A stretch of DNA of 50,192 nucleotides from a phage. Positions 16,097-50,168 of the stretch are shown here, piece by piece. The stretch lies in sequence record PZ445416.1, one strand, 5' to 3'. Within the stretch, counting starts at the first letter, position 1; the number at the start of each line of letters is the position of its first letter. Below the pieces are notes generated by a model. It worked only from the letters and a program-made list of their open reading frames with translations, searched no databases and had not been told where the DNA came from. A program made the translations under genes and the position numbers.

Positions 16097-19000
16097 ATGA
16101 TTCAAAAAGTGATAAGTGGATCTAAGGGTGGGTCACAGAAGCCTCATAACCCAGTTGAGATGGAAGACAATCTAATCTCAATCAACAAAATCAAAATCCT
16201 GTTAGCTGTATCTGATGGTGAAATTGACGAAACATTCAGCCTAAAGCAGTTGATGTTTAACTCAGTTCCGGTGCAAAACGAGGATGGATCGTTCAACTTC
16301 GAAGGGGTAAAGGCTGAGTTCAGGCCGGGAACTCAGACGCAGGAATACATAAAGGGCATGGAAGATAGCTCCAGCGAGGTAACTGTAAATCGTGAGGTTA
16401 CTACCGATAACCCATACACGATCTCAGTAACCAACAAAACGCTGTCGGCAATCCGTATCAAAATGTTCATGCCTCGCGGCGTACGAATTGAAAGTAACGG
16501 CGATAAAAACGGCGTTCGCGTTGAGTACGAGGTGCAGCAAGCGGTTGATGGCGGTTCGTTTGAGACTGTTCTTACTGATGTAATCGAAGGCAAAACAATG
16601 TCGGGTTATGATCGAAGCCGTCGCGTAAACCTGCCTAACTTCAACAATCAGGTAATATTCAGAGTTGTTCGAAAGACTCCTGATTCCAATGACTCGAATG
16701 TCGTTGATGCAATCCAGGTAAGAAGCTATGCAGAGGTCATTGATGCCAAATTCCGATATCCTCTGACTGGTCTTCTTTTCGTAGAGTTCGATTCGAAGAT
16801 GTTCCCCAACCAGTTACCTACGATCTCAATTCGTAAGCGCTGGAAGATTGTAAACGTTCCGTCTAACTACGACCCAGAATCGCGAACATACAACGGCAAT
16901 TGGGATGGCACTTTCAAAAAAGCATGGACGAATAATCCGGCGTGGGTTCTTTATGACCTGATGATTAATCAGCGTTACGGCCTGGATCAGAAAGAGCTTG
17001 GTATCGCTGTCGATAAATGGGCGCTCTACGAGGCTGCGCAATATTGCGATCAGATGGTTCCTGATGGGAAGGGCGGGACGGAACCTCGATACCTTTGCGA
17101 CGTGATAATCCAGTCCCAGACTGACGCTTACAAGGTTATTCGAGATATTTGCTCAATCTTTCGAGGTATGAGCTTTTGGAATGGCGAAAGCATTTCGGTA
17201 ATCATCGACAGGCCGCGTGAACCTGCGTACATCTTCACTAACGACAACGTTGTTAATGGTGACTTCTCCTACACGTTCGCAAGCGAAAAGAGCATGTACA
17301 CGACGTGTAATGTGATGTTTGATGATGAACAAAACATGTATCAACAGGACGTTGAGCCAGTATTCGATCGTGAGGCTACTCTACGCTTCGGGAACAACGT
17401 AACGAGCATTACAGCGATCGGGTGCACTCGACGCAGCGAGGCTAACCGACGTGGGCGATGGATTCTGAAAACGAACCTACGCAGCACTACGGTAAACTTC
17501 GCTACTGGACTGGAAGGGATGATTCCGACAATCGGAGACGTGGTGGCAATATCTGATAACTTCTGGTCAAGTAACTTGACGATGAACCTGTCAGGGCGAT
17601 TGCTCGAAGTGTCAGGTAGTCAGATTTTCCTGCCGTTCCGCGTTGATGCGCGCGCAGGTGACTTTATTATCGTAAATAAGCCAGATGGCAAGCCCGTGAA
17701 GCGCACAATCTCAAGTGTTAGTGCGGATGGTAAGACCATAGAGATTAACATCGGCTTTGGCTTTCCTGTGAAGCCTAACACGGTATTCGCAATCGACCGT
17801 ACTGACATTGCGTTGCAGCAGTACGTCGTGACAAAAATCGACAAGGGCGATGATGATGAGGAATTTACCTACAAAATCACGGCGGTGGAGTACGATCCTA
17901 ACAAGTACGATGAAATTGATTACGGGGTTAACATCGACGACCGACCGACGAGCATCGTTGAGCCAGATCAGATCCCTAAGCCGAAAAACGTGAAAGTGTC
18001 CTCAGAGTCGAGAATCGTCCAGGGGATGAGCGTAGAAACGATGATTGTTAGCTGGGATAAAGTGCCGTACGCAGTTTTCTATGACGTACAGTGGCGAAAG
18101 GATAACGGCAACTGGCAAAACGTTCCGCAGACAGCAAACAAAGAGGTTTATGTTGAAGGGATTTACGCTGGCAACTATCAGGTTCGCGTTCGCTCCGTCG
18201 CTGGTTCGGGTACGACTTCAGGCTGGTCAAATATCGTCGCGGCAACATTGACGGGTAAACAGGGTGAGCCTGGCCGACCGATTAACCTTACAGCTACGGA
18301 TGATGTTGTTTTTGGCATCCGTACAAAATGGGGGTTCTCTGATGGTTCTGGAGATACGGCCTATACGGAGTTGCAACAGTCACCGGATGGAACAGTGGAT
18401 AACGCAAGTTTGCTTTCATTGATTCCGTATCCGCAGCATGAGTATTATCACTCACCGATGCCGGGAGGGAATATTGTGTGGTATCGGGTAAGGACAGTTG
18501 ACAGGATCGGTAACGTGTCTCAGTGGACTGATTTTGTCAGGGGCATGGCATCAACAAACGTTGACGATATCATCGGAGAGATTTCTGTCGATATCGAAAA
18601 CTCGCCGGGTTACGAGTGGCTTGTTGATAACGCAACCGACAACGCGTCGCAGAACGCAGCGAACGCAGAGGCAGCAATTGAGAACGCGCTGGCTAATGAC
18701 AAAGACGCGATCTACATGAAGAAGGAGAACGGAAAGCGAAAAGCGGAGTACACCAAATCACTGAAGCTAATTGCTGATGAGACTGAGGCGCGAGTAACGG
18801 CGGTTGAGCAATTGAGGGCGAGCTTTGGCGATCAGATTAGCGCAAGCAATAGTGAATTGCGTGAAGTTATCGCAACTGAGACAGGGGCGCTATCTCGTGA
18901 GATTGACCAACTCAAGGCAGAGATTGGTGATGATATTCAGGCAAGTTTGACCGATATCCGTGAAGCCATCGCGAACGAGACTGAGGCGAGAACGCAAGCT

Positions 19001-19516
19001 GACTTAACGTTAAGCGCGCGACTTGGGAATAACGAGGCAGCACTTTCTCAAAAACTTGACTCGTGGAGTAACGCCGATTCGACTGGTGCAATGTACGGCG
19101 TCAAGCTGGGTCTGAAATACAACGGCCAGGAATACAGCGCAGGAATGGCTATGTCTCTGATTGGTTCCGGGGCTGCGGTTAAAGCGCAAATTCTATTCGA
19201 AGCGTCACGATTTGCAATCATGACTGGAATGAACGGTCAGACTCAGTATCCTTTCGTTGTTGAAGGTAATCAGGTGATTCTTAATAGTGCCATCATTAAG
19301 AACGGATTCATCACGAATGCGATGATTGGTAATGTTATTCAATCGAATAACTATGTCGTTAACAAGGCTGGCTGGAGACTTGACAAGGGAGGTACATTTG
19401 AAAACTACGGAAGTGATGGTGAGGGTGCAATGAAGCAAACTAATACCACAATATCTGTTAGGGATGCGAGTGGTCGCCTGAGGGTTCAGATTGGCAGGTT
19501 GACTGGCTCATGGTAA
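16097..19516 (+). CDS. tail tip / host-specificity protein (lambda J-like)
   Basis: 1139 aa, largest tail-tip ORF, with central fibronectin-III-like repeats and a C-terminal receptor-binding region; followed by terminator. Confidence 0.8.
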   Translation: MIQKVISGSKGGSQKPHNPVEMEDNLISINKIKILLAVSDGEIDETFSLKQLMFNSVPVQNEDGSFNFEGVKAEFRPGTQTQEYIKGMEDSSSEVTVNREVTTDNPYTISVTNKTLSAIRIKMFMPRGVRIESNGDKNGVRVEYEVQQAVDGGSFETVLTDVIEGKTMSGYDRSRRVNLPNFNNQVIFRVVRKTPDSNDSNVVDAIQVRSYAEVIDAKFRYPLTGLLFVEFDSKMFPNQLPTISIRKRWKIVNVPSNYDPESRTYNGNWDGTFKKAWTNNPAWVLYDLMINQRYGLDQKELGIAVDKWALYEAAQYCDQMVPDGKGGTEPRYLCDVIIQSQTDAYKVIRDICSIFRGMSFWNGESISVIIDRPREPAYIFTNDNVVNGDFSYTFASEKSMYTTCNVMFDDEQNMYQQDVEPVFDREATLRFGNNVTSITAIGCTRRSEANRRGRWILKTNLRSTTVNFATGLEGMIPTIGDVVAISDNFWSSNLTMNLSGRLLEVSGSQIFLPFRVDARAGDFIIVNKPDGKPVKRTISSVSADGKTIEINIGFGFPVKPNTVFAIDRTDIALQQYVVTKIDKGDDDEEFTYKITAVEYDPNKYDEIDYGVNIDDRPTSIVEPDQIPKPKNVKVSSESRIVQGMSVETMIVSWDKVPYAVFYDVQWRKDNGNWQNVPQTANKEVYVEGIYAGNYQVRVRSVAGSGTTSGWSNIVAATLTGKQGEPGRPINLTATDDVVFGIRTKWGFSDGSGDTAYTELQQSPDGTVDNASLLSLIPYPQHEYYHSPMPGGNIVWYRVRTVDRIGNVSQWTDFVRGMASTNVDDIIGEISVDIENSPGYEWLVDNATDNASQNAANAEAAIENALANDKDAIYMKKENGKRKAEYTKSLKLIADETEARVTAVEQLRASFGDQISASNSELREVIATETGALSREIDQLKAEIGDDIQASLTDIREAIANETEARTQADLTLSARLGNNEAALSQKLDSWSNADSTGAMYGVKLGLKYNGQEYSAGMAMSLIGSGAAVKAQILFEASRFAIMTGMNGQTQYPFVVEGNQVILNSAIIKNGFITNAMIGNVIQSNNYVVNKAGWRLDKGGTFENYGSDGEGAMKQTNTTISVRDASGRLRVQIGRLTGSW

Positions 19517-19867: not shown

Positions 19868-20556
19868 TGTCATACGGTGCTTTTATAGATGTAAACGGAA
19901 ACCCATTCATAACCCCGCTATCCACGCCATTCGCTTTATATGCGAGAGGGGAAATTAAATCAGTAAATGTTAGTGGTTCACAGGTTGCGGAGAGATATGT
20001 TCGGATACCTACAGGTGTTCCGGTTATAGCTTTTTGCAAAACAACAAACACGCAGCAGGGGACCGCGCTTTCAGCCTTTACTTTCAGAAGCGGACCCAAT
20101 GTTGGAACTGTTTATATAAGGGGGACAAATCCAGCAAACCAATCATACACACTAACATATTACATATTTGCCATATTTGAGCAGTCACTACCGAGCTGGG
20201 GTATGGCGATATGGGATGCGTCAGGAAAGCTAGTGCTGACAAATGAGACAAAAGTCCTTAGTGATTTGGTTACAATCGGCACTCCTGGATACGCTGGCGG
20301 CGGATTAAACATAGACACAACACTCAGCGGAAGCTACGCAGTTGTTCCAACTATACTTGGCAACTATCAAATTGTTATTGGCAGGCTGCCAACTGGGCAA
20401 CCCATAATAGGAAACTCAACAGCAGGCAGTTCATGCAGGTACAATGGGAGCACAACGAGAATAAATGCAGCAGCAACCACTGCAGCGGGTCAGATAATGA
20501 ACACCACAAATAATGGAAATATTATAACAGCAATCAAAACGGCAGCGTACGACTAA
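19867..20556 (+). CDS. hypothetical tail-associated protein
   Basis: 229 aa, Gly/Thr/Asn-rich, start overlaps upstream stop; last gene of the late block before a bidirectional terminator. Confidence 0.45.
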   Translation: MSYGAFIDVNGNPFITPLSTPFALYARGEIKSVNVSGSQVAERYVRIPTGVPVIAFCKTTNTQQGTALSAFTFRSGPNVGTVYIRGTNPANQSYTLTYYIFAIFEQSLPSWGMAIWDASGKLVLTNETKVLSDLVTIGTPGYAGGGLNIDTTLSGSYAVVPTILGNYQIVIGRLPTGQPIIGNSTAGSSCRYNGSTTRINAAATTAAGQIMNTTNNGNIITAIKTAAYD

Positions 20557-22468: not shown

Positions 22469-23116
22469 ATGCAATTATCACCAGAAACAAACGAAATCCT
22501 TCCTGCACTGTTCAATGCTCGCAACAAATTCGCGAAAGCAAAGAAGGACGCTAAAAACAATCACCTGAAAAATTCATACGCAACTCTTGATGCAATGATG
22601 GCGGCAGTAAGCCCGGCGCTAACCGATAACGATATCATGATCCTGCAATCAATGCTGGATACCAGCACTGAAACAACTTTCCACCTTGAGACTATGTTGA
22701 TTCACAAATCAGGGCAATGGGCCAAATTCTTCATGATGATGCCTATTGCAAAACGCGATCCGCAAGGCGTAGGATCTGCAATGACTTACGCTCGGCGCTA
22801 CTCACTCGCTGCGGCGCTGGGGATTAGTCAGAGTGATGACGATGCTCAGCTTGCAGTGAAATCTGTCAAGGACTGGAAAAAAGAACTTGATGCGTGTGAA
22901 GATATCGAATCACTGAAAGAGGTATGGGCCAGCGCCTACCGTCAGACTGACACGGCAAGTAAGTCAATTATTCAGGATCACTACAACGCACTTAAGGCTA
23001 AGTTTGAGATCGGTAAAGCTCGTGGTATTCGCCCGGCGCAACCGGAACAGAAAAAACAGGTTGAAGCAACTAGCGCGAAGCCTGTACAATCTCAATCAAT
23101 CACCAACTTCGAATAA
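22469..23116 (+). CDS. Erf-like single-strand annealing protein
   Basis: Start at MQLSPE after CAGGAGAAG; motifs NSYATLDAMM and TYARRYSLAAALG resemble the Erf family. Confidence 0.6.
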   Translation: MQLSPETNEILPALFNARNKFAKAKKDAKNNHLKNSYATLDAMMAAVSPALTDNDIMILQSMLDTSTETTFHLETMLIHKSGQWAKFFMMMPIAKRDPQGVGSAMTYARRYSLAAALGISQSDDDAQLAVKSVKDWKKELDACEDIESLKEVWASAYRQTDTASKSIIQDHYNALKAKFEIGKARGIRPAQPEQKKQVEATSAKPVQSQSITNFE

Positions 23117-23161
23117 TCATCAGGGCGGCTTCTGTCGCCCATAAATTTTAGGAGAGAAATA

Positions 23162-23587
23162 ATGCATATTATCACTGGCGAGATCCGCAAAGAACCTAAG
23201 ATTCTTGAACGTAACGGCGGCAATACTTATATCATCGAACTGGCAGAAAGCTATAAGCCTCGTGATGGCGATCGAGAATACACAAACTACACATTCTTTT
23301 TTAGCGATGGTGGAAAGCCTGGCCTTGCTGACTGGTATCGCGAAGCGTTTCAGGTTGGTCGGGTAATTTCAGTATCTTGCGAAACGTTGAAGATCTCATC
23401 CCGTGAGCACAACGGAACGATTTACAATTCATTGCAGGCAGCTGATTTCCCTAAGCTGGTATTCAGTCAACGAGGACAAAGCAATCAACAACAGCGATCG
23501 CCTCAGCAGCAACAACAGCGTTCTCAGCAGCAGTCACAACCACAACCAAATCAACAATCAACATTTGACGACGATATTCCATTCTAA
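23162..23587 (+). CDS. ssb: single-stranded DNA-binding protein
   Basis: 141 aa OB-fold-like N-terminus, Gln-rich linker and acidic C-terminal tail DDDIPF typical of SSB. Confidence 0.85.
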   Translation: MHIITGEIRKEPKILERNGGNTYIIELAESYKPRDGDREYTNYTFFFSDGGKPGLADWYREAFQVGRVISVSCETLKISSREHNGTIYNSLQAADFPKLVFSQRGQSNQQQRSPQQQQQRSQQQSQPQPNQQSTFDDDIPF

Positions 23588-23615
23588 AAAGAAGCCCCGC
23601 AATGCGGGGCTTTTT
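23587..23615. terminator. bidirectional terminator between ssb and tail fibre gene
   Basis: AAAAAGAA, GCCCCGCAATGCGGGGC hairpin, TTTTTG; convergent genes on both sides. Confidence 0.75.
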
Positions 23616-23616
23616 G

Positions 23617-25599
23617 TTACTTGTTTTCGATTAGTCTGTTAACCAACACTTCAAGCGCTGACAGTCTTGATTCAAGATCAGCGATCCTTTCCTTGTTCTG
23701 TTCATCACGAGCACGTAGCGCCTTGATTGCAGCAAGTCCATCTAAAAGCATTGGTGTCCGATCTAGGTGGTAGTACCCACCAATTAATTTGGTGTATTCC
23801 TTATCGATTCCTCGAATTTGTTGGCTGATAACACCCCTTCGGACAGTTGGCTCTTTATTTTGGTCCCTTTCTTCTTTAAACCGGAATAGTTTAAAGTCCA
23901 TGCGGTTAATGTTATCCAATGCCCCCTCGACGTTAAGATTACCAAGCACGTCTTTAAGACGTTCATCAGAGACTGCGCTCATAGTGTATTCCGACCACGG
24001 TTGCCACCCACCTTTGTTGGTGTTCACCCTTGAGTACGTGACGTTCCCTGTAGTGTAGTAGATCTGACGCCACCATACATCTTTCGGGTTATAGCTCCCT
24101 GGTAAGCTACCCTCCTTAAGACCCTGCGAGCAATAAGAGAAACAAGACCCGTAAGTGTCCGTGACAGGACCGTTAGCTGGGTTGCCAGCAACATACGACC
24201 AGCCCTGTGCAATATCGTCAAAGTTACCAAGCCATACGTCGTCACCATTCCACATCAAACCACCTTTTAGCGCTAACGATGTATCCGCACCTTCGACCCC
24301 CTCGATTTGTGGGAACTCAAGCCGCTGAAAGGTTCCGTTGCCGTCGTTGGCGCGGCGGTACAGGCGTACGATTCCGTCATCGTTTAGCTCAAGCGACATG
24401 TTATGGCGCATTGATGACGACTCAATGGTGTCGTTAGTGAGGCTGATTTTAGGCGAAGCATTCCCGCGTACCTTAACCATGCTCGACGCTCGCACTTCGC
24501 TCGGCCCGGATAATAGTCCATCCTCGTTATACGTGAGGTATGCGGTCTTTGCCGCTTCATGGTTCCCTGTAGAAATAGAGGTGGTGGATTTGCCGTCAAC
24601 CAGTTCGTTGTTAAACGTCGATTTTGTTAACAGCGCACCGCCCGCATCATTTCGGTGGGACTCCATGCCGCCGCCGTATGCAGTACCGTTCAGTTTTAGG
24701 TGCAAGGATTGGTGAGTTACGTTATCCGCGTCACCAAGCCCCACATTAGTTCGCGACGTCGGCAGATCAGCCAGGCCAGCCAGGTTGTCGGATTTAGTTA
24801 GCAGGTTTTCAGCATTAACGCTATTTGCTGCGTCTTTCGCTTCCTGAGCACTTACCGCCGCCGCATCTTTTGCGCTTACCGCATTGTCACGCGCTACCTG
24901 AGCGTCGTTTTTTGCAGAGGTTGCCGTTTGCGCTGCCGTTTGAGCGTCATTAACGTAACCTGACAGATCGCCTTTTGCGTCATTAATTGCCTGAATCGCC
25001 GCTGCCTCTTCTGTGTCAATGTGAGAGATAACAGATGATTCCTTAGATCCGATATTAGTAATAGCCTGATCTTTTGCCGCATTAATGCTATCTACAGCGC
25101 CGTCAACAATTTGCTGAGTCTGGTTCTTGATTGAGTTAGTTTCATCACGAGCCGCATTTGCTGCGTCACGAGCTAATTCAGATTGATTCTGAGCCGACTC
25201 TGCCGCCGATTTGTTCGCCTTAATTTCCTCAACGATACGGTTAAGGTTATCCATACCCAGATCTGCAATGATATCCATTGCCCCAGCAATCTCAGTCTCT
25301 TTACTTTGATAGTATCTAAGCGTCTCAGCAACGTTTTGAGCCAATCCATTAACGGTTAGTGAGTCGTTAAGCAGGATTACATACTTTCCGTCAGCGGCAG
25401 TCTGACCATCCGTAGAGATAGCCTTTAACTCTGTGTCACTCACAATATCGCTGATTACAGCCAGCTTAATTGGTTGCTCCAGGAATACGATAGTTGCACC
25501 GACTCGAATCAGAGCAAGCTGATCTTTCCATTTTGTATCGGTTCCGTGAACTGTGCCGTCTGCATCCATTGATGCCGTACCGCGTCGATATAAAGCCAT
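23617..25599 (-). CDS. tail fibre with C-terminal intramolecular chaperone (peptidase S74-like) domain
   Basis: 660 aa; C-terminus has SDERLKDV followed by a roughly 110-aa coiled-coil domain, matching the autocleavage motif of S74 chaperone domains. Confidence 0.75.
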   Translation of the reverse strand: MALYRRGTASMDADGTVHGTDTKWKDQLALIRVGATIVFLEQPIKLAVISDIVSDTELKAISTDGQTAADGKYVILLNDSLTVNGLAQNVAETLRYYQSKETEIAGAMDIIADLGMDNLNRIVEEIKANKSAAESAQNQSELARDAANAARDETNSIKNQTQQIVDGAVDSINAAKDQAITNIGSKESSVISHIDTEEAAAIQAINDAKGDLSGYVNDAQTAAQTATSAKNDAQVARDNAVSAKDAAAVSAQEAKDAANSVNAENLLTKSDNLAGLADLPTSRTNVGLGDADNVTHQSLHLKLNGTAYGGGMESHRNDAGGALLTKSTFNNELVDGKSTTSISTGNHEAAKTAYLTYNEDGLLSGPSEVRASSMVKVRGNASPKISLTNDTIESSSMRHNMSLELNDDGIVRLYRRANDGNGTFQRLEFPQIEGVEGADTSLALKGGLMWNGDDVWLGNFDDIAQGWSYVAGNPANGPVTDTYGSCFSYCSQGLKEGSLPGSYNPKDVWWRQIYYTTGNVTYSRVNTNKGGWQPWSEYTMSAVSDERLKDVLGNLNVEGALDNINRMDFKLFRFKEERDQNKEPTVRRGVISQQIRGIDKEYTKLIGGYYHLDRTPMLLDGLAAIKALRARDEQNKERIADLESRLSALEVLVNRLIENK

Positions 25600-25620
25600 A
25601 ATATAAACTCCTTAAATAAA

Positions 25621-25635
25621 TAGCACGAATTGCTA
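25621..25635 (+). promoter_or_regulatory. isolated Box-A site
   Basis: TAGCACGAATTGCTA between tail fibre start and primase terminator; only a weak hexamer (TATGAG) at the 22-bp position and no plus-strand gene downstream. Confidence 0.45.
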
Positions 25636-25673
25636 AACACAGATTTTATCATTGCTCTATGAGTCTTGCAACG

Positions 25674-25702
25674 GGCAATAAAAAACCGCCCGAAGGCGGT
25701 TA
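25674..25702 (-). terminator. rho-independent terminator after primase (minus strand)
   Basis: Minus strand CCGCCTTCGGGCGG hairpin then TTTTTTATT, immediately after the primase stop. Confidence 0.7.
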
Positions 25703-26635
25703 GAGTAGGTCACTTGCTGAGAATAACTTAGCTTGCATTCCTGAACGGTATCCTCCAGGATTCGGGATAATTATTTTTAATTGCCTGTCGTCAGCCATGT
25801 ATAAAGTCTCCTTATCTGAAGGTTCGCACGCCACTCTTACCTCGCGATCTCCTTTGTATCTGTACGCAACCATTTCGAGATTTTCAGGAGTGAAGCAGGC
25901 CCACACCTCTTGCTTTGTGTGAAATGCAATATGCTGAGCATCAATCCAATTAAGGCATAAGTAGATCGCTTTTTCAGTTTTACCAGTCACGGCAACCGAG
26001 CAACTTGTGTATTTCTTAGCGTAAAATGACTCCCTTCCTTCCTCATCAATAATCAAAATATTGCAAAACTCATCATCAAGACCGTCCTCGTGTACAAGTT
26101 GACATGGTATGGTGTGAAATACGCTCTCCCCGCCATCGTCGCGACGTTTTACGCCAACGTCGAATGATTCAGTAGGTAGCGACTCAAACATGCTTAGAGG
26201 CGTCTTTACGCGCTTCTCTGTGCGCTCCATGACTTTCATCACCGCTTCATGATCTGCCATCATGACATTGACACCAGATACCGGAGTTCGGCGCGCTTTC
26301 TTGTTTGCCTTGACGATGTATTCCTGCGGAACTTTTCCGAGAAATCTTCCCAATATATTTATGCATTCGCTATACGGCATACCAGTTAATTTCATCAACC
26401 AACCGATCCCGGAGTCGTTACCGCATGAGTTGCAGATTGCACCGCCGTCTCCTGGGGTATTCAGGTTGTCGGTCCAGCGAAAACGGTCTTTACCTCCACA
26501 GTTGGGGCAAGGTTGATGCTTCTTGTTGAATACCTCGTTAGGCAATCCGCAGACTGACTGAAAAGCCTCACGCCATAACCCCTTCATATACGGCAAGACG
26601 TCCTCTTTCTGAAACATCATAAACTCTTCGTTCAC
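25700..26635 (-). CDS. DNA primase
   Basis: N-terminal zinc-binding motif CPNCGG...CNSCG followed by a Toprim-like acidic region; adjacent to helicase. Confidence 0.65.
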   Translation of the reverse strand: MNEEFMMFQKEDVLPYMKGLWREAFQSVCGLPNEVFNKKHQPCPNCGGKDRFRWTDNLNTPGDGGAICNSCGNDSGIGWLMKLTGMPYSECINILGRFLGKVPQEYIVKANKKARRTPVSGVNVMMADHEAVMKVMERTEKRVKTPLSMFESLPTESFDVGVKRRDDGGESVFHTIPCQLVHEDGLDDEFCNILIIDEEGRESFYAKKYTSCSVAVTGKTEKAIYLCLNWIDAQHIAFHTKQEVWACFTPENLEMVAYRYKGDREVRVACEPSDKETLYMADDRQLKIIIPNPGGYRSGMQAKLFSASDLL

Positions 26636-26651: not shown

Positions 26652-26696
26652 AAAAAACGCGTAGAAGGATGTTAACCCGCTACGCGTCGTTTGTTT
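26652..26696 (-). terminator. terminator/attenuator-like hairpin between HTH gene and primase
   Basis: Minus strand stem CGCGTAG / CTACGCG with 15-nt loop followed by TTTTTTA; long loop makes it weak. Confidence 0.4.
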
Positions 26697-27148
26697 TAAC
26701 TAAAAATGCTATTCGTCGTTCCAATATCTTCCTTCTTCACGACTCGCATAAACTTCTTGTTTTTGCATCGCTTCTCAAGGCACTTTCCGTTCCCATCAAA
26801 CTTCAGATCGAATCGTAGCCATGCCGCCCGGAATCCTTTGCAACCCTGTCGGCGGTAAGCACGATGCGCTGCTTCAGCGCCTTGCCATGAAATCATATTG
26901 CGATCTTTCCAGCCTTGCACCGTCTGATTGCTAACTTTTAGAGCCTTTGCGCAGGCCGCAGGACCACCGTAATATTCGATAAGAGCATCCAATCGCGCTC
27001 TCAGTCCTGCGCGCGTTTCTTCTTTATGGATATAAAATCCGCAGCGCTGGCGAGGCTTTTTATCTTTACCGCGTCGTGTTCCGTTGTTACCATTGATGTG
27101 ACGTTTATCGATTTCACCAGTAGACTCTGCGATACGTTTCATATTCAT
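26696..27148 (-). CDS. HTH DNA-binding protein (YdaS/Cro-like)
   Basis: Start moved to MNMKR after AGGAG; segment GGPAACAKALKVSNQTVQGWK resembles YdaS/XRE-type helix-turn-helix; basic N-terminus. Confidence 0.5.
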   Translation of the reverse strand: MNMKRIAESTGEIDKRHINGNNGTRRGKDKKPRQRCGFYIHKEETRAGLRARLDALIEYYGGPAACAKALKVSNQTVQGWKDRNMISWQGAEAAHRAYRRQGCKGFRAAWLRFDLKFDGNGKCLEKRCKNKKFMRVVKKEDIGTTNSIFS

Positions 27149-27161
27149 CTTAATTCTCCTG

Positions 27162-27204
27162 TAGCACTTTTTGCTAAAAACGTTTACTGTATGCCGTGTA
27201 TTAT
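27162..27204 (+). promoter_or_regulatory. Box-A cassette (putative phage promoter/operator) upstream of helicase
   Basis: TAGCACTTTTTGCTA, 22 bp, TATTAT; in the divergent gap between the HTH gene and helicase. Confidence 0.6.
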
Positions 27205-27242
27205 ATCGTAAACGATACAACGATTCAAAGGATTAAATAGCC

Positions 27243-30703: not shown

Positions 30704-30737
30704 TTGCTAAAACTACCCGGCGAAAGTCGGGTATAGT
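30695..30737 (+). promoter_or_regulatory. Box-A cassette
   Basis: CAGCACTAATTGCTA, 22 bp containing hairpin ACCCGGCGAAAGTCGGGT, TATAGT; upstream stop TAA is inside the box. Confidence 0.6.
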
Positions 30738-30769
30738 TATTTCATGGAAACGAAATGAGGAATCAGAAG

Positions 30770-32691: not shown

Positions 32692-32725
32692 TTGCTAAAG
32701 ATACCCGAATCCCTTCGGGTATAGT
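32683..32725 (+). promoter_or_regulatory. Box-A cassette
   Basis: TCGCACTAATTGCTA, 22 bp with perfect IR ATACCCGAA/TTCGGGTAT, TATAGT. Confidence 0.6.
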
Positions 32726-32754
32726 AATCACATCGAAAACAAAGAGGATATATC

Positions 32755-37045: not shown

Positions 37046-37081
37046 TTCGTTAACTCCTGATTGGTTATCTTGAATAAGGTC

Positions 37082-37124
37082 ACTTTATCAAATGACCTTA
37101 CGGCAATATTAACAAATCGTGCTA
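37082..37124 (-). promoter_or_regulatory. Box-A cassette (minus strand)
   Basis: Minus strand TAGCACGATTTGTTA, 22 bp, TAAAGT enclosed by IR AAGGTCA/TGACCTT, leader CCAATCAGGAG. Confidence 0.55.
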
Positions 37125-37563: not shown

Positions 37564-37595
37564 TTTTAATTCCTTTGTTTGTTTGGTGTGGGAGT

Positions 37596-37639
37596 AATAT
37601 ACCTTACTCCCTGCTGATTGTCTTTAGCTATTCGTGCTA
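37596..37639 (-). promoter_or_regulatory. Box-A cassette (minus strand, variant box)
   Basis: Minus strand TAGCACGAATAGCTA, 23 bp, TATATT, IR GGGAGTAA/TTACTCCC. Confidence 0.5.
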
Positions 37640-38682: not shown

Positions 38683-38713
38683 GGTGATTACCTCGTTTTC
38701 TGTTGATGGGATG

Positions 38714-38756
38714 ACTATACCAGCCATCCTTGATGCGCGTTTAGCAATTTGTGCTA
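38714..38756 (-). promoter_or_regulatory. Box-A cassette (minus strand)
   Basis: Minus strand TAGCACAAATTGCTA, 22 bp, TGgTATAGT, IR GGATG/CATCC. Confidence 0.6.
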
Positions 38757-42056: not shown

Positions 42057-42096
42057 CACGAATTGTTAAAACCGGATCGGGGTATCTTGCTATAGT
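42054..42096 (+). promoter_or_regulatory. Box-A cassette
   Basis: TAGCACGAATTGTTA, 22 bp with IR GGGGTA/TACCCC, TGcTATAGT. Confidence 0.6.
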
Positions 42097-42134
42097 TACC
42101 CCATCAAAACGAGATACCAATCAGAGGATTCACC

Positions 42135-44363: not shown

Positions 44364-44403
44364 CACGAATTGCTAAACCTTCCGCAAGGCCATTTGATAT
44401 AGT
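44361..44403 (+). promoter_or_regulatory. Box-A cassette
   Basis: TAGCACGAATTGCTA, 22 bp with IR AAGGCCA/TGGCCTT, TGaTATAGT. Confidence 0.6.
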
Positions 44404-44443
44404 GGCCTTATTGAAGCAAGGCAACCAATCAGAGGAATCAGCT

Positions 44444-45923: not shown

Positions 45924-45950
45924 AACCTATCAAGGTGAATGCGCTATGAT
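45908..45950 (+). promoter_or_regulatory. Box-A cassette
   Basis: TAGCACGAATTGCTA, 22 bp, TATGAT. Confidence 0.6.
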
Positions 45951-45980
45951 TCCCCTACACCAACAAACGAGGAAACGATA

Positions 45981-46427: not shown

Positions 46428-46470
46428 TAGCACGAATTGCTAAAACTTGCTCAAGGGTATTTGATAGAAT
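46428..46470 (+). promoter_or_regulatory. Box-A cassette upstream of HAD phosphatase gene
   Basis: TAGCACGAATTGCTA, 22 bp, TGaTAGAAT, leader CCAATCAGAGGA. Confidence 0.6.
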
Positions 46471-46510
46471 GCCCTTCGTTGAGTTAAGCAACCAATCAGA
46501 GGAATAAATC

Positions 46511-47803: not shown

Positions 47804-47843
47804 CACGAATTGCTAAAACTTCGGTGGGGTGATTTGATATAGT
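47801..47843 (+). promoter_or_regulatory. Box-A cassette
   Basis: TAGCACGAATTGCTA (TAG is the kinase stop), 22 bp, TGaTATAGT, leader CATCGACAACGAAGAGAG. Confidence 0.6.
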
Positions 47844-47875
47844 TACCTCATCGACAACGAAGAGAGAAAATCGAA

Positions 47876-49590: not shown

Positions 49591-49610
49591 ATGCCTGCAA
49601 TATGGTAAAA

Positions 49611-49625
49611 TAGCACTAAATGTTA
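49611..49625 (+). promoter_or_regulatory. isolated Box-A site over the TerS leader
   Basis: TAGCACTAAATGTTA immediately downstream of extended -10-like TGgTAAAAT (49603-49611) and 18 nt before the TerS ATG. Confidence 0.5.
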
Positions 49626-49643
49626 AACAGAGAGGATGTATTT

Positions 49644-50168
49644 ATGAGTGAACCTAAGAACGCTCCCGTAGTCCAGGGGGGTAATTTCAAAGAGCTATAC
49701 AAGAAAAAGTTTGGCACTGTACTCGCGAAAAACCGGGCAATGACGCCTGAGCAATTATTCGATCTGTCAGTGAAGTATTTCGAATGGGCCGAGGACAACG
49801 CAATCAAGGCGTCAGAATCAGCCAGCTTTCAAGGTGGCGTTTATGAATCGCTTGTTCATAAGCCGCGCGTCTTCACCTGGACCGGATACCGACTGTTCAT
49901 CGGTGCAAGCGAGGCCGCAATCATTAAGTGGAAGCGAGAGGAAGAATACAGTGAGGTTATGGAGTTTGTGGAATCGGTAATCAACGAGCAAAAATTCCAG
50001 CTTGCCGCCAACGGTGTTATTAATGCCTCCTTTATCGGTAAGGATCTCGGAATCGATAAGCCAGCCTCAATCAATATCGAAAACTCGTCAGCTTCCGCAT
50101 CGACAGTAGTCGCCACTACTGAGGATGCAATGAAGGACGCAGTAAATAGCATTCTTGACATGCTTTAA
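49644..50168 (+). CDS. terminase small subunit
   Basis: Start at MSEPKN after AGAGAGGA; about 175 aa, directly precedes TerL in a circular reading of the window; assignment from position and remembered family resemblance. Confidence 0.6.
   Translation: MSEPKNAPVVQGGNFKELYKKKFGTVLAKNRAMTPEQLFDLSVKYFEWAEDNAIKASESASFQGGVYESLVHKPRVFTWTGYRLFIGASEAAIIKWKREEEYSEVMEFVESVINEQKFQLAANGVINASFIGKDLGIDKPASINIENSSASASTVVATTEDAMKDAVNSILDML

Follow-up and report, generated by a model that had tools for sequence, protein, structure and literature searches.

We analyzed a phage DNA of 50,192 nucleotides (PZ445416.1), here referred to as the window, whose first 25 kb are approximately 94 to 95% identical to phages T1, IME167, and phi2013. 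A sequence-only reading had singled out a 660-codon fibre gene on the minus strand between ssb and primase, and the open reading frame is indeed present there (Table 1). Its product falls into PHROGs tail fibre families (E values of 1e-66 to 1.5e-67) and is 100% identical to the lateral tail fiber protein of Escherichia phage LeonhardEuler (P0001). In the BASEL supplementary table, LeonhardEuler is listed as Bas13 (MZ501092; Drexlerviridae, Tunavirinae, Tunavirus), with "LPS / O-antigen?" as the primary receptor and FhuA as the terminal receptor. The gene is therefore real but ordinary, an already annotated GenBank gene for the lateral tail fibre of this T1-like phage. It is the sole structural gene in the early region of the window. 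The tail module, in turn, contains a J-like gene (positions 16097 to 19516), small receptor-binding genes that extend to position 20556, and cor. The fibre gene had been described as lying far from the other tail genes; it is detached from them, but the distance from position 20556 is only about 3 kb, with recE, erf, and ssb in between.

Table 1. Genes, protein segments, and predicted signals at the fibre locus (positions within the window)
Feature	Positions	Strand	Remarks
ssb	23162-23587	plus	141 aa, ssb-like; neighbour of the fibre gene; annotation in relatives
Bidirectional intrinsic terminator	23589-23615	both	Common to ssb (plus) and the fibre gene (minus)
Lateral tail fibre gene	23617-25599	minus	660 aa, ATG start, 71.3-kDa precursor
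Peptidase_S74 intramolecular chaperone	23620-23970	minus	aa 544-660; 13.6 kDa
SDERLK, putative catalytic Ser-x4-Lys dyad	23953-23970	minus	aa 544-549
Variable receptor-binding region	23971-24729	minus	aa 291-543; predicted all-beta, knob-like
Junction motif NSVNAENLLTKSDNLAGLADLPTSRTNVGLG	24730-24822	minus	aa 260-290; site of all 5′ recombination breakpoints
Ala/Asn/Ser/Asp-rich shaft	24823-25269	minus	aa 111-259; 78-88% identity with tunavirus relatives
N-terminal virion-attachment domain	25270-25599	minus	aa 1-110; 96-99% identity with five tunavirus fibres
Shine-Dalgarno AAGGAG	25608-25613	minus	8 nt before the fibre ATG; invariant in seven tunaviruses
Box A, AATAGCACGAATTGCTAAA	25619-25637	plus	Perfect copy of the intergenic repeat of the T1 family; antisense relative to the fibre gene
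Predicted sigma-70-like fibre promoter	25643-25671	minus	TTGCAA, 17-nt spacer, extended −10 TGaTAAAAT
Intrinsic terminator after primase	25684-25701	minus	Annotated at the same site in SA30RD
Primase	25700-26635	minus	311 aa; neighbour of the fibre gene; annotation in relatives

The same layout recurred across the family. In all ten relatives compared (T1, IME18, SA30RD, phi2457T, EF3-1, IME-JL8, IME347, LL5, Rtp, and LF82-11), which represent six genera and three named subfamilies, the fibre gene is inverted and lies directly beside primase. The ssb gene was seen on its other side in five tunaviruses (T1, IME18, SA30RD, phi2457T, and EF3-1), in which recE, erf, and ssb run rightward, the fibre, primase, and regulator genes leftward, and the helicase gene rightward again. 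The block of fibre, primase, and regulator genes is kept in Sertoctavirus IME-JL8, Badaguanvirus IME347, Tlsvirus LL5 (Tempevirinae), Rtp (Braunvirinae), and the unclassified phage LF82-11. The BASEL study describes conserved, syntenic genes for recombination and for primase/helicase on the flanks of the lateral fibre locus (PMC8594841, legend of the S1C figure) and reports that lateral fibre genes share only their 5′ end, the far N terminus being conserved (PMC8594841). The Rtp record likewise limits the likeness of the rtp50 fibre to T1 gp26 to the N-terminal region. The earlier observation of an inverted gene inside the replication module was thus correct, but the position is no peculiarity: it is a fixed family layout, neither unusual nor new, and has been published for the BASEL Drexlerviridae (PMC8594841). 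Overall, little about the locus is new, since the gene is annotated and both its family-wide position and the pattern of a conserved N terminus and a variable C terminus have been published.

The protein comprises four parts (attachment domain, shaft, tip, and chaperone) and a junction motif between shaft and tip (Table 1). Residues 1 to 190 match the N termini of crystallised depolymerases (7VYV, 7VZ3, and 7LZJ; E value of 4e-43), which, as far as sequence similarity goes, fits a common virion-attachment domain bearing different distal bodies. The shaft is probably an alpha-helical coiled coil; the stretch of EF3-1 homologous to it gives a weak Alanine_zipper match, and elongated N-terminal coiled coils have been described for the fibre of the BASEL phage JakobBernoulli (BASEL 2025). 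The motif NL..L.D....AR.NLGL of the junction recurs in the unrelated fibre 9zd7 gp92, and it is therefore plausibly a shared linker that supplies homology for recombination. An AlphaFold2 (AF2) monomer model of residues 265 to 660 of this natively trimeric protein had a mean pLDDT of 75.5; residues 265 to 374 were poorly predicted (pLDDT of 41 to 66), most of the last 120 residues were predicted at a pLDDT of 82 to 95, and residues 614 to 659 formed a single long helix. The best structural matches of the tip in this monomer model were knobs of pyocin fibres. A profile search with the C terminus reached the T5-type L-shaped fibre 8hqz_d only at an E value of 0.013, a phmmer search of residues 481 to 660 against PDB sequences returned only a chance lipase match (E value of 1.7), and an NCBIfam search of the fibre protein assigned no family.

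The C terminus had been proposed, from its SDERLK motif and a coiled coil, to be an intramolecular chaperone, and this proposal was borne out. Pfam Peptidase_S74 (PF13884) matches residues 544 to 598 with 31.4 bits against a curated cutoff of 22, the putative dyad sits at the N-terminal boundary of the domain, and the model shows a mixed alpha/beta fold that ends in the long helix and corresponds to that of four autocleaving domains with solved structures. S544, D545, K549, and R524 do not vary among 88 aligned homologues with 27 to 90% identity to the query. There is thus good support for identifying the product as a tail fibre that carries an S74 intramolecular chaperone. Among known proteins, T5 pb1 offers a close parallel, being a siphovirus lateral fibre in which an S74 chaperone comes after a beta-rich tip and which has a Ser-x4-Lys dyad of the same spacing and a terminal coiled-coil helix. 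T5 pb1 autocleaves, and its binding to O-antigen is reversible; the cut falls between Thr1263 and Ser1264, Lys1269 activates Ser1264, and the S1264A substitution blocks cleavage (PMC4690869). The chaperone is also shared with the K1F endosialidase (3GW6), phi29 gp12 (3GUD), and the ICA domain of MyRF (7DC3), but the passenger domains differ: an endosialidase beta-propeller, a beta-helix appendage, and a eukaryotic transcription factor, as against the small knob-like tip of the LeonhardEuler fibre. S74 chaperone domains on Drexlerviridae lateral fibres are already described, as Gp36 of JakobBernoulli combines a coiled coil, a T5-like tip, and a C-terminal intramolecular chaperone (BASEL 2025).

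Comparison of the gene and its flanks across relatives revealed mosaic breakpoints and demonstrated the module exchange that had been anticipated. While residues 1 to 259 are 78 to 99% identical to those of other tunaviruses, the receptor-binding part is 11 to 37% identical. DNA identity with six relatives is 88 to 94% up to positions 23614 to 23622, at the terminator and stop codon, and is back to 88 to 94% from positions 24766 to 24805 (codons 265 to 278) onward. Between these limits there is no nucleotide similarity except with IME18 (to 23997), ECO104 4-5-2 (to 24154), and EF3-1 (to 23706), so that in most relatives the terminator marks the 3′ limit of the variable region. All 5′ breakpoints fell at codons 260 to 278, and the 3′ breakpoints either coincided with the stop codon or lay within the chaperone domain.

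The individual segments have different relatives. T1 gp26 (ST26), a member of the published Drexlerviridae lateral fibre locus (PMC8594841; rtp50 in Rtp), sits, on the opposite strand, in the same place flanked by ssb and primase, with the same terminator, promoter, and Box A, and is 98% identical over residues 1 to 110 and 82% over residues 111 to 259. Identity then drops to 55% (residues 260 to 290), 18% (291 to 481), 26% (482 to 543), and 22% (544 to 632); the C-terminal 370 residues are unrelated (18 to 26% identity), and the fibres of T1 and SA30RD lack an S74 domain and terminate instead in Pfam PF25670 (Phage_tail_C_2), which implies that the chaperone moves as part of the exchangeable C-terminal module. 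Over the same six intervals, the IME18 fibre is 99, 78, 48, 23, 37, and 81% identical, and a metagenomic fibre (P0006) is 25, 23, 84, 82, 98, and 96% identical. Four other fibres (P0017, P0018, P0022, and P0024) combine an N terminus of about 90% identity and a chaperone of 72 to 88% identity with a tip of only 30 to 39% identity. These combinations indicate that three modules reassort: the anchor plus shaft, the tip, and the chaperone.

The metagenomic gene resides on a 44.7-kb contig, directly after the tape-measure, M, L, K, I, J, and cor-like genes and on the same strand, and is followed by leftward DNA polymerase A, SNF2, and Dam genes, a Dhillonvirus-type layout. When its locus was compared with the entire 50-kb window, the sole DNA similarity was a 1.1-kb segment (positions 23701 to 24822, 84% identity), so the likeness starts at codon 260. 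The lateral fibres of Dhillonvirus-type phages (HK578 and TheodorHerzl, as well as metagenomic P0003 to P0007) share the tip plus chaperone, with 82 to 98% identity over residues 260 to 632 for P0006 and 45% identity for HK578; they differ in their unrelated N-terminal anchor and, for the P0006 gene, in its place after the tail module on the same strand and in a genome that carries DNA polymerase A. Tunavirus and Dhillonvirus-type phages exchange the same tip. For phage engineers, the module map, with junctions at residues 260 to 290, at residues 543/544, and at the terminator, can serve as a guide to swapping tips while sparing attachment and folding.

These data bear on the proposal that the detached, inverted position is what allows receptor-binding cassettes to be swapped. 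That the gene is a recent or inverted whole-gene cassette made exchangeable by its detached position is largely refuted, and we regard it as very improbable. Terminators on either side insulate the gene, as they might such a cassette, and it is the only structural gene of the early region; yet it keeps the same position and orientation beside primase in the ten relatives from six genera (on the ssb side, in the five tunaviruses). Of 65 related phage records, none spans 80% or more of the 3.7-kb region (the best covers 76%), but conservation of codons 1 to 259, of the promoter, and of Box A equals that of the flanks. The 5′ breakpoint therefore lies inside the gene, at codons 260 to 278, and not at Box A, where a whole-gene cassette delimited by Box A and the terminator would have it. 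Moreover, the tip and chaperone (84% nucleotide and 82 to 98% amino acid identity) are fused to an unrelated N terminus in the Dhillonvirus-like contig. There the tip module comes immediately after the tail genes and is co-oriented with them, so swapping does not depend on a detached, inverted position. As judged from these alignments, module exchange is demonstrated, but it is intragenic and also occurs where the gene adjoins the tail genes.

Two further alternatives concern the protein itself. Because its attachment domain matches crystallised Klebsiella phage depolymerases, the product might be a glycan-degrading tailspike instead of a binding-only fibre, and it is also in endosialidases that S74 domains were first found. 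However, the similarity to Depo32 of Klebsiella phage GH-K3 (7VZ3 and 7VYV) and to the RAD2 depolymerase (7LZJ) is confined to that domain, beyond which, in these proteins, a large enzymatic body takes the place of the fibre tip and S74 domain. The tip of the LeonhardEuler fibre comprises only about 250 residues, contains no Pfam or NCBIfam enzyme domain, and finds its best structural matches in the pyocin knobs, not in beta-helix enzymes, and we therefore rejected a depolymerase identity as exceedingly unlikely. It is also quite improbable that the S74 domain is kept for folding and trimerisation yet remains uncleaved, the virion then carrying the full-length 71-kDa chain. The invariant R524 lies 20 residues ahead of Ser544, whereas the corresponding distance in T5 pb1, in which Arg1250 and Asp1239 of a neighbouring chain act as an upstream "folding sensor" (PMC4690869), is 14 residues. 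This difference would be compatible with an uncleaved domain, but the nucleophilic Ser and activating Lys are invariant despite the wide divergence of the homologues, the fold is that of solved autocleaving domains, and the same dyad gives cleavage in T5 pb1, K1F endoNF, and phi29 gp12 (PMC4690869).

The explanation we favor with high confidence is that of a family-typical lateral tail fibre gene with an exchangeable tip and an S74 chaperone, which would autocleave and whose product would make the first contact with a surface glycan. By analogy with T5 pb1, the K1F endosialidase, and phi29 gp12, three fibre chains would trimerise and the chaperone would serve as the template on which the tip folds; in a correctly formed trimer, Lys549 would activate Ser544, which would then cut the predicted Val543-Ser544 bond. 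We infer autocleavage at this bond from the same analogy. The 13.6-kDa chaperone would then depart, and the mature chain, with a computed mass of 57.8 kDa as compared with 71.3 kDa for the precursor, would stay on the virion. The BASEL data further suggest that the fibre may make a reversible first contact with LPS or an O-antigen, and that FhuA would be bound as the terminal receptor through the separate receptor-binding locus of the tail tip. Among the Drexlerviridae of that collection, only JakobBernoulli plates robustly on K-12 with restored O16 (PMC8594841), which argues that O16 is not the target of the LeonhardEuler tip. It should be noted that fibre formation and glycan binding have, in the words of the BASEL study, "never been directly demonstrated" for Drexlerviridae (PMC8594841), and that lateral fibre density is absent from the cryo-EM structure of laboratory T1 (PMC11945409).

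Upstream and downstream of the gene, we identified plausible transcription signals. The bidirectional terminator that had been proposed beside the fibre gene was confirmed, as the segment scores on both strands: it forms a G+C-rich hairpin with a 12-pair stem on the plus strand and a 9-pair stem on the minus strand, each followed by a T run, and the annotations of T1 and SA30RD place a terminator pair at the homologous site. On the other side, the stem of the terminator predicted after primase keeps its pairing across genera in spite of sequence changes (CCGCC/GGCGG, CCCGC/GCGGG, CCTCC/GGAGG, and CCCTC/GAGGG), and the fibre gene would therefore be insulated as its own transcription unit. The promoter-like site matches the consensus at 9 of 12 positions and carries the additional TG. 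Both of its hexamers are invariant in seven tunaviruses, in which the spacer varies, and the extended −10 element TGnTAnAAT is found at an equal distance from Box A in four further genera. A search of positions 23000 to 26000 against Rfam at gathering thresholds gave no match.

The isolated Box A noted beside the fibre gene is real, and it is also inverted relative to that gene. The 19-mer AATAGCACGAATTGCTAAA occurs in 12 copies in the window, compared with 0.04 expected by chance, and corresponds to a 21-nt direct repeat with the consensus aaATAGCACnnnTTGnTAAAA in TLS, T1, and Rtp, the role of which is an open question (PMC11447400). Ten copies, all located between 30.7 and 47.8 kb and none of them in the structural module, point along the direction in which transcription runs, and they are followed 20 to 21 nt downstream by a TATAGT-like hexamer; in nine of these ten, the hexamer lies in or beside a stable hairpin (z of −2.2 to −5.5). 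Unlike them, the fibre-linked copy has no conserved TATAGT-like partner 20 nt downstream. A plus-strand promoter at this copy is unlikely, as the TATGAG found at 20 nt lacks the final T and the stretch varies among relatives. The name does not denote an antitermination box of the nut/rrn type, since the lambda/rrn-type boxA TGCTCTTTAACA is not enriched in the window (46 matches with up to three mismatches versus 52 expected). Similarly, a reading of Box A as an RNA hairpin (TAGCA-N5-TGCTA) is weakened, as neither IME-JL8 (TATCA...TGCTA) nor the TLS consensus preserves the palindrome.

Since the inverted Box A starts 5 to 6 nt after the −10 element of the fibre promoter, it would span approximately positions +1 to +19 of the predicted fibre mRNA. 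Together with the Shine-Dalgarno sequence and the promoter hexamers, this geometry is invariant in the seven tunaviruses. The order of terminator, extended −10 element, inverted Box A, and Shine-Dalgarno sequence recurs in IME-JL8, IME347, Rtp, and LF82-11, whereas LL5 lacks it; the arrangement is thus found in Tunavirus, Sertoctavirus, Badaguanvirus, Rtpvirus, and phage LF82-11 and is absent from Tlsvirus LL5. Because Box A lies upstream of the TATAGT-like hexamer at ten early promoters but is flipped across the predicted start of the fibre transcript, opposite regulation is conceivable. We tentatively consider, as a rather unlikely reading, that the inverted Box A might be an operator or leader through which a putative factor activates the early genes and holds back or times the fibre gene; a candidate for this factor is perhaps the adjacent gp23-like regulator (positions 26696 to 27220). 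If true, the operator reading would provide the first functional handle on the T1-family repeat left open in the TLS genome paper (PMC11447400). The conserved inverted Box A at the predicted fibre promoter is the only mildly new element of the locus, and it offers a small, testable clue to this unexplained intergenic repeat.

The fibre gene of the Dhillonvirus-like genome L007, a 44.7-kb metagenomic contig (VATA22-2 scaffold_129), encodes a tip and chaperone like those of the lateral tail fibre in the window, but its N-terminal anchor is unrelated. This 1.1-kb tip and chaperone segment, 84% identical at the nucleotide level, is the sole part that the two genomes have in common, and, judged from this comparison, it is a clean case of a receptor-binding module moving between phage lineages. 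All 5′ breakpoints fall within one junction motif of the fibre, and a similar motif is present six times in an unrelated fibre, the short tail fiber gp92 (PDB 9zd7). The junction motif may therefore represent a widespread linker that serves as a recombination hotspot.

The fibre C-terminus also varies within the genus. Unlike the fibre in the window, which ends in a Peptidase_S74 chaperone (S74) domain, gp26 of the type phage T1 and the fibre of phage SA30RD terminate in Pfam domain PF25670 (Phage_tail_C_2), and the S74 domain is absent from both; hence, a single genus employs two nonhomologous C-terminal solutions. At the opposite end of the protein, the N-terminal domain (amino acids 1 to 110, reaching residue 190) is approximately 60% identical to the N termini of Klebsiella phage capsule depolymerases, namely, Depo32 from phage GH-K3 and the depolymerase of RAD2. 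Since both of these have been crystallised, the structure of the domain by which Drexlerviridae fibres attach may already have been solved.

Coordinates of the features discussed
Feature	Position	Strand	Note
Box A copies	30693, 32681, 42052, 44359, 45906, 46426, 47799	+	TATAGT-like −10 downstream
Box A copies	37108, 37623, 38740	−	TATAGT-like −10 downstream
Hairpin spacers	30712-30751, 32700-32739, 37068-37107, 37583-37622, 38700-38739, 42071-42110, 44378-44417, 46445-46484, 47818-47857		folding
Spacer	45925-45964		no such hairpin on folding
Degenerate Box A copy	49609-49627		three mismatches
Inverted Box A	25619-25637		before fibre gene
Primase terminator	25684-25701
Junction motif	24730-24822		NLLxKxDNLxGLxDxxxxRxNxGLG, aa 260-290
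Fibre N-terminal domain	25270-25599
T1 gp26	L001:4648-6834		PF25670
SA30RD fibre	L003:2617-4743		PF25670
Fibre gene with shared tip and chaperone	L007:8001-9956

In the window, a TATAGT-like −10 sequence sits 20 to 21 nt past each of 10 co-directional copies of the 19-nt repeat Box A. The motif is centred at about −42, and the TTGCTA sequence within it lies 22 nt from the −10, a distance that exceeds the reach of a normal −35 element. From its sequence, this arrangement looks like a dedicated early-promoter architecture in T1-like phages. Folding predicted a stable hairpin in the spacer after Box A at nine of these canonical copies, with energies of −11 to −19 kcal/mol and z values between −2.2 and −5.5; the TATAGT hexamer is located within or adjoining the loop or the 3′ arm. 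A further, degenerate copy overlaps the start of the open reading frame at 49620-50168, and no −10 partner was found for it; it may be either a decayed Box A or a chance match.

The Box A before the fibre gene is inverted and placed between the −10 of the predicted fibre promoter and the Shine-Dalgarno sequence. It is kept in Tunavirus (T1), Sertoctavirus, Badaguanvirus, Rtpvirus, and LF82-11; the region upstream of the fibre gene of LL5 (Tlsvirus) lacks it. Directly upstream of the fibre promoter lies the primase terminator, whose stem varies in sequence between genera (CCGCC/GGCGG, CCCGC/GCGGG, CCTCC/GGAGG, and CCCTC/GAGGG) while pairing remains complete in the window and at the homologous sites of L009, L010, L012, and L013 (IME-JL8, IME347, Rtp, and LF82-11). 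Because these changes are compensatory, they support a functional terminator.
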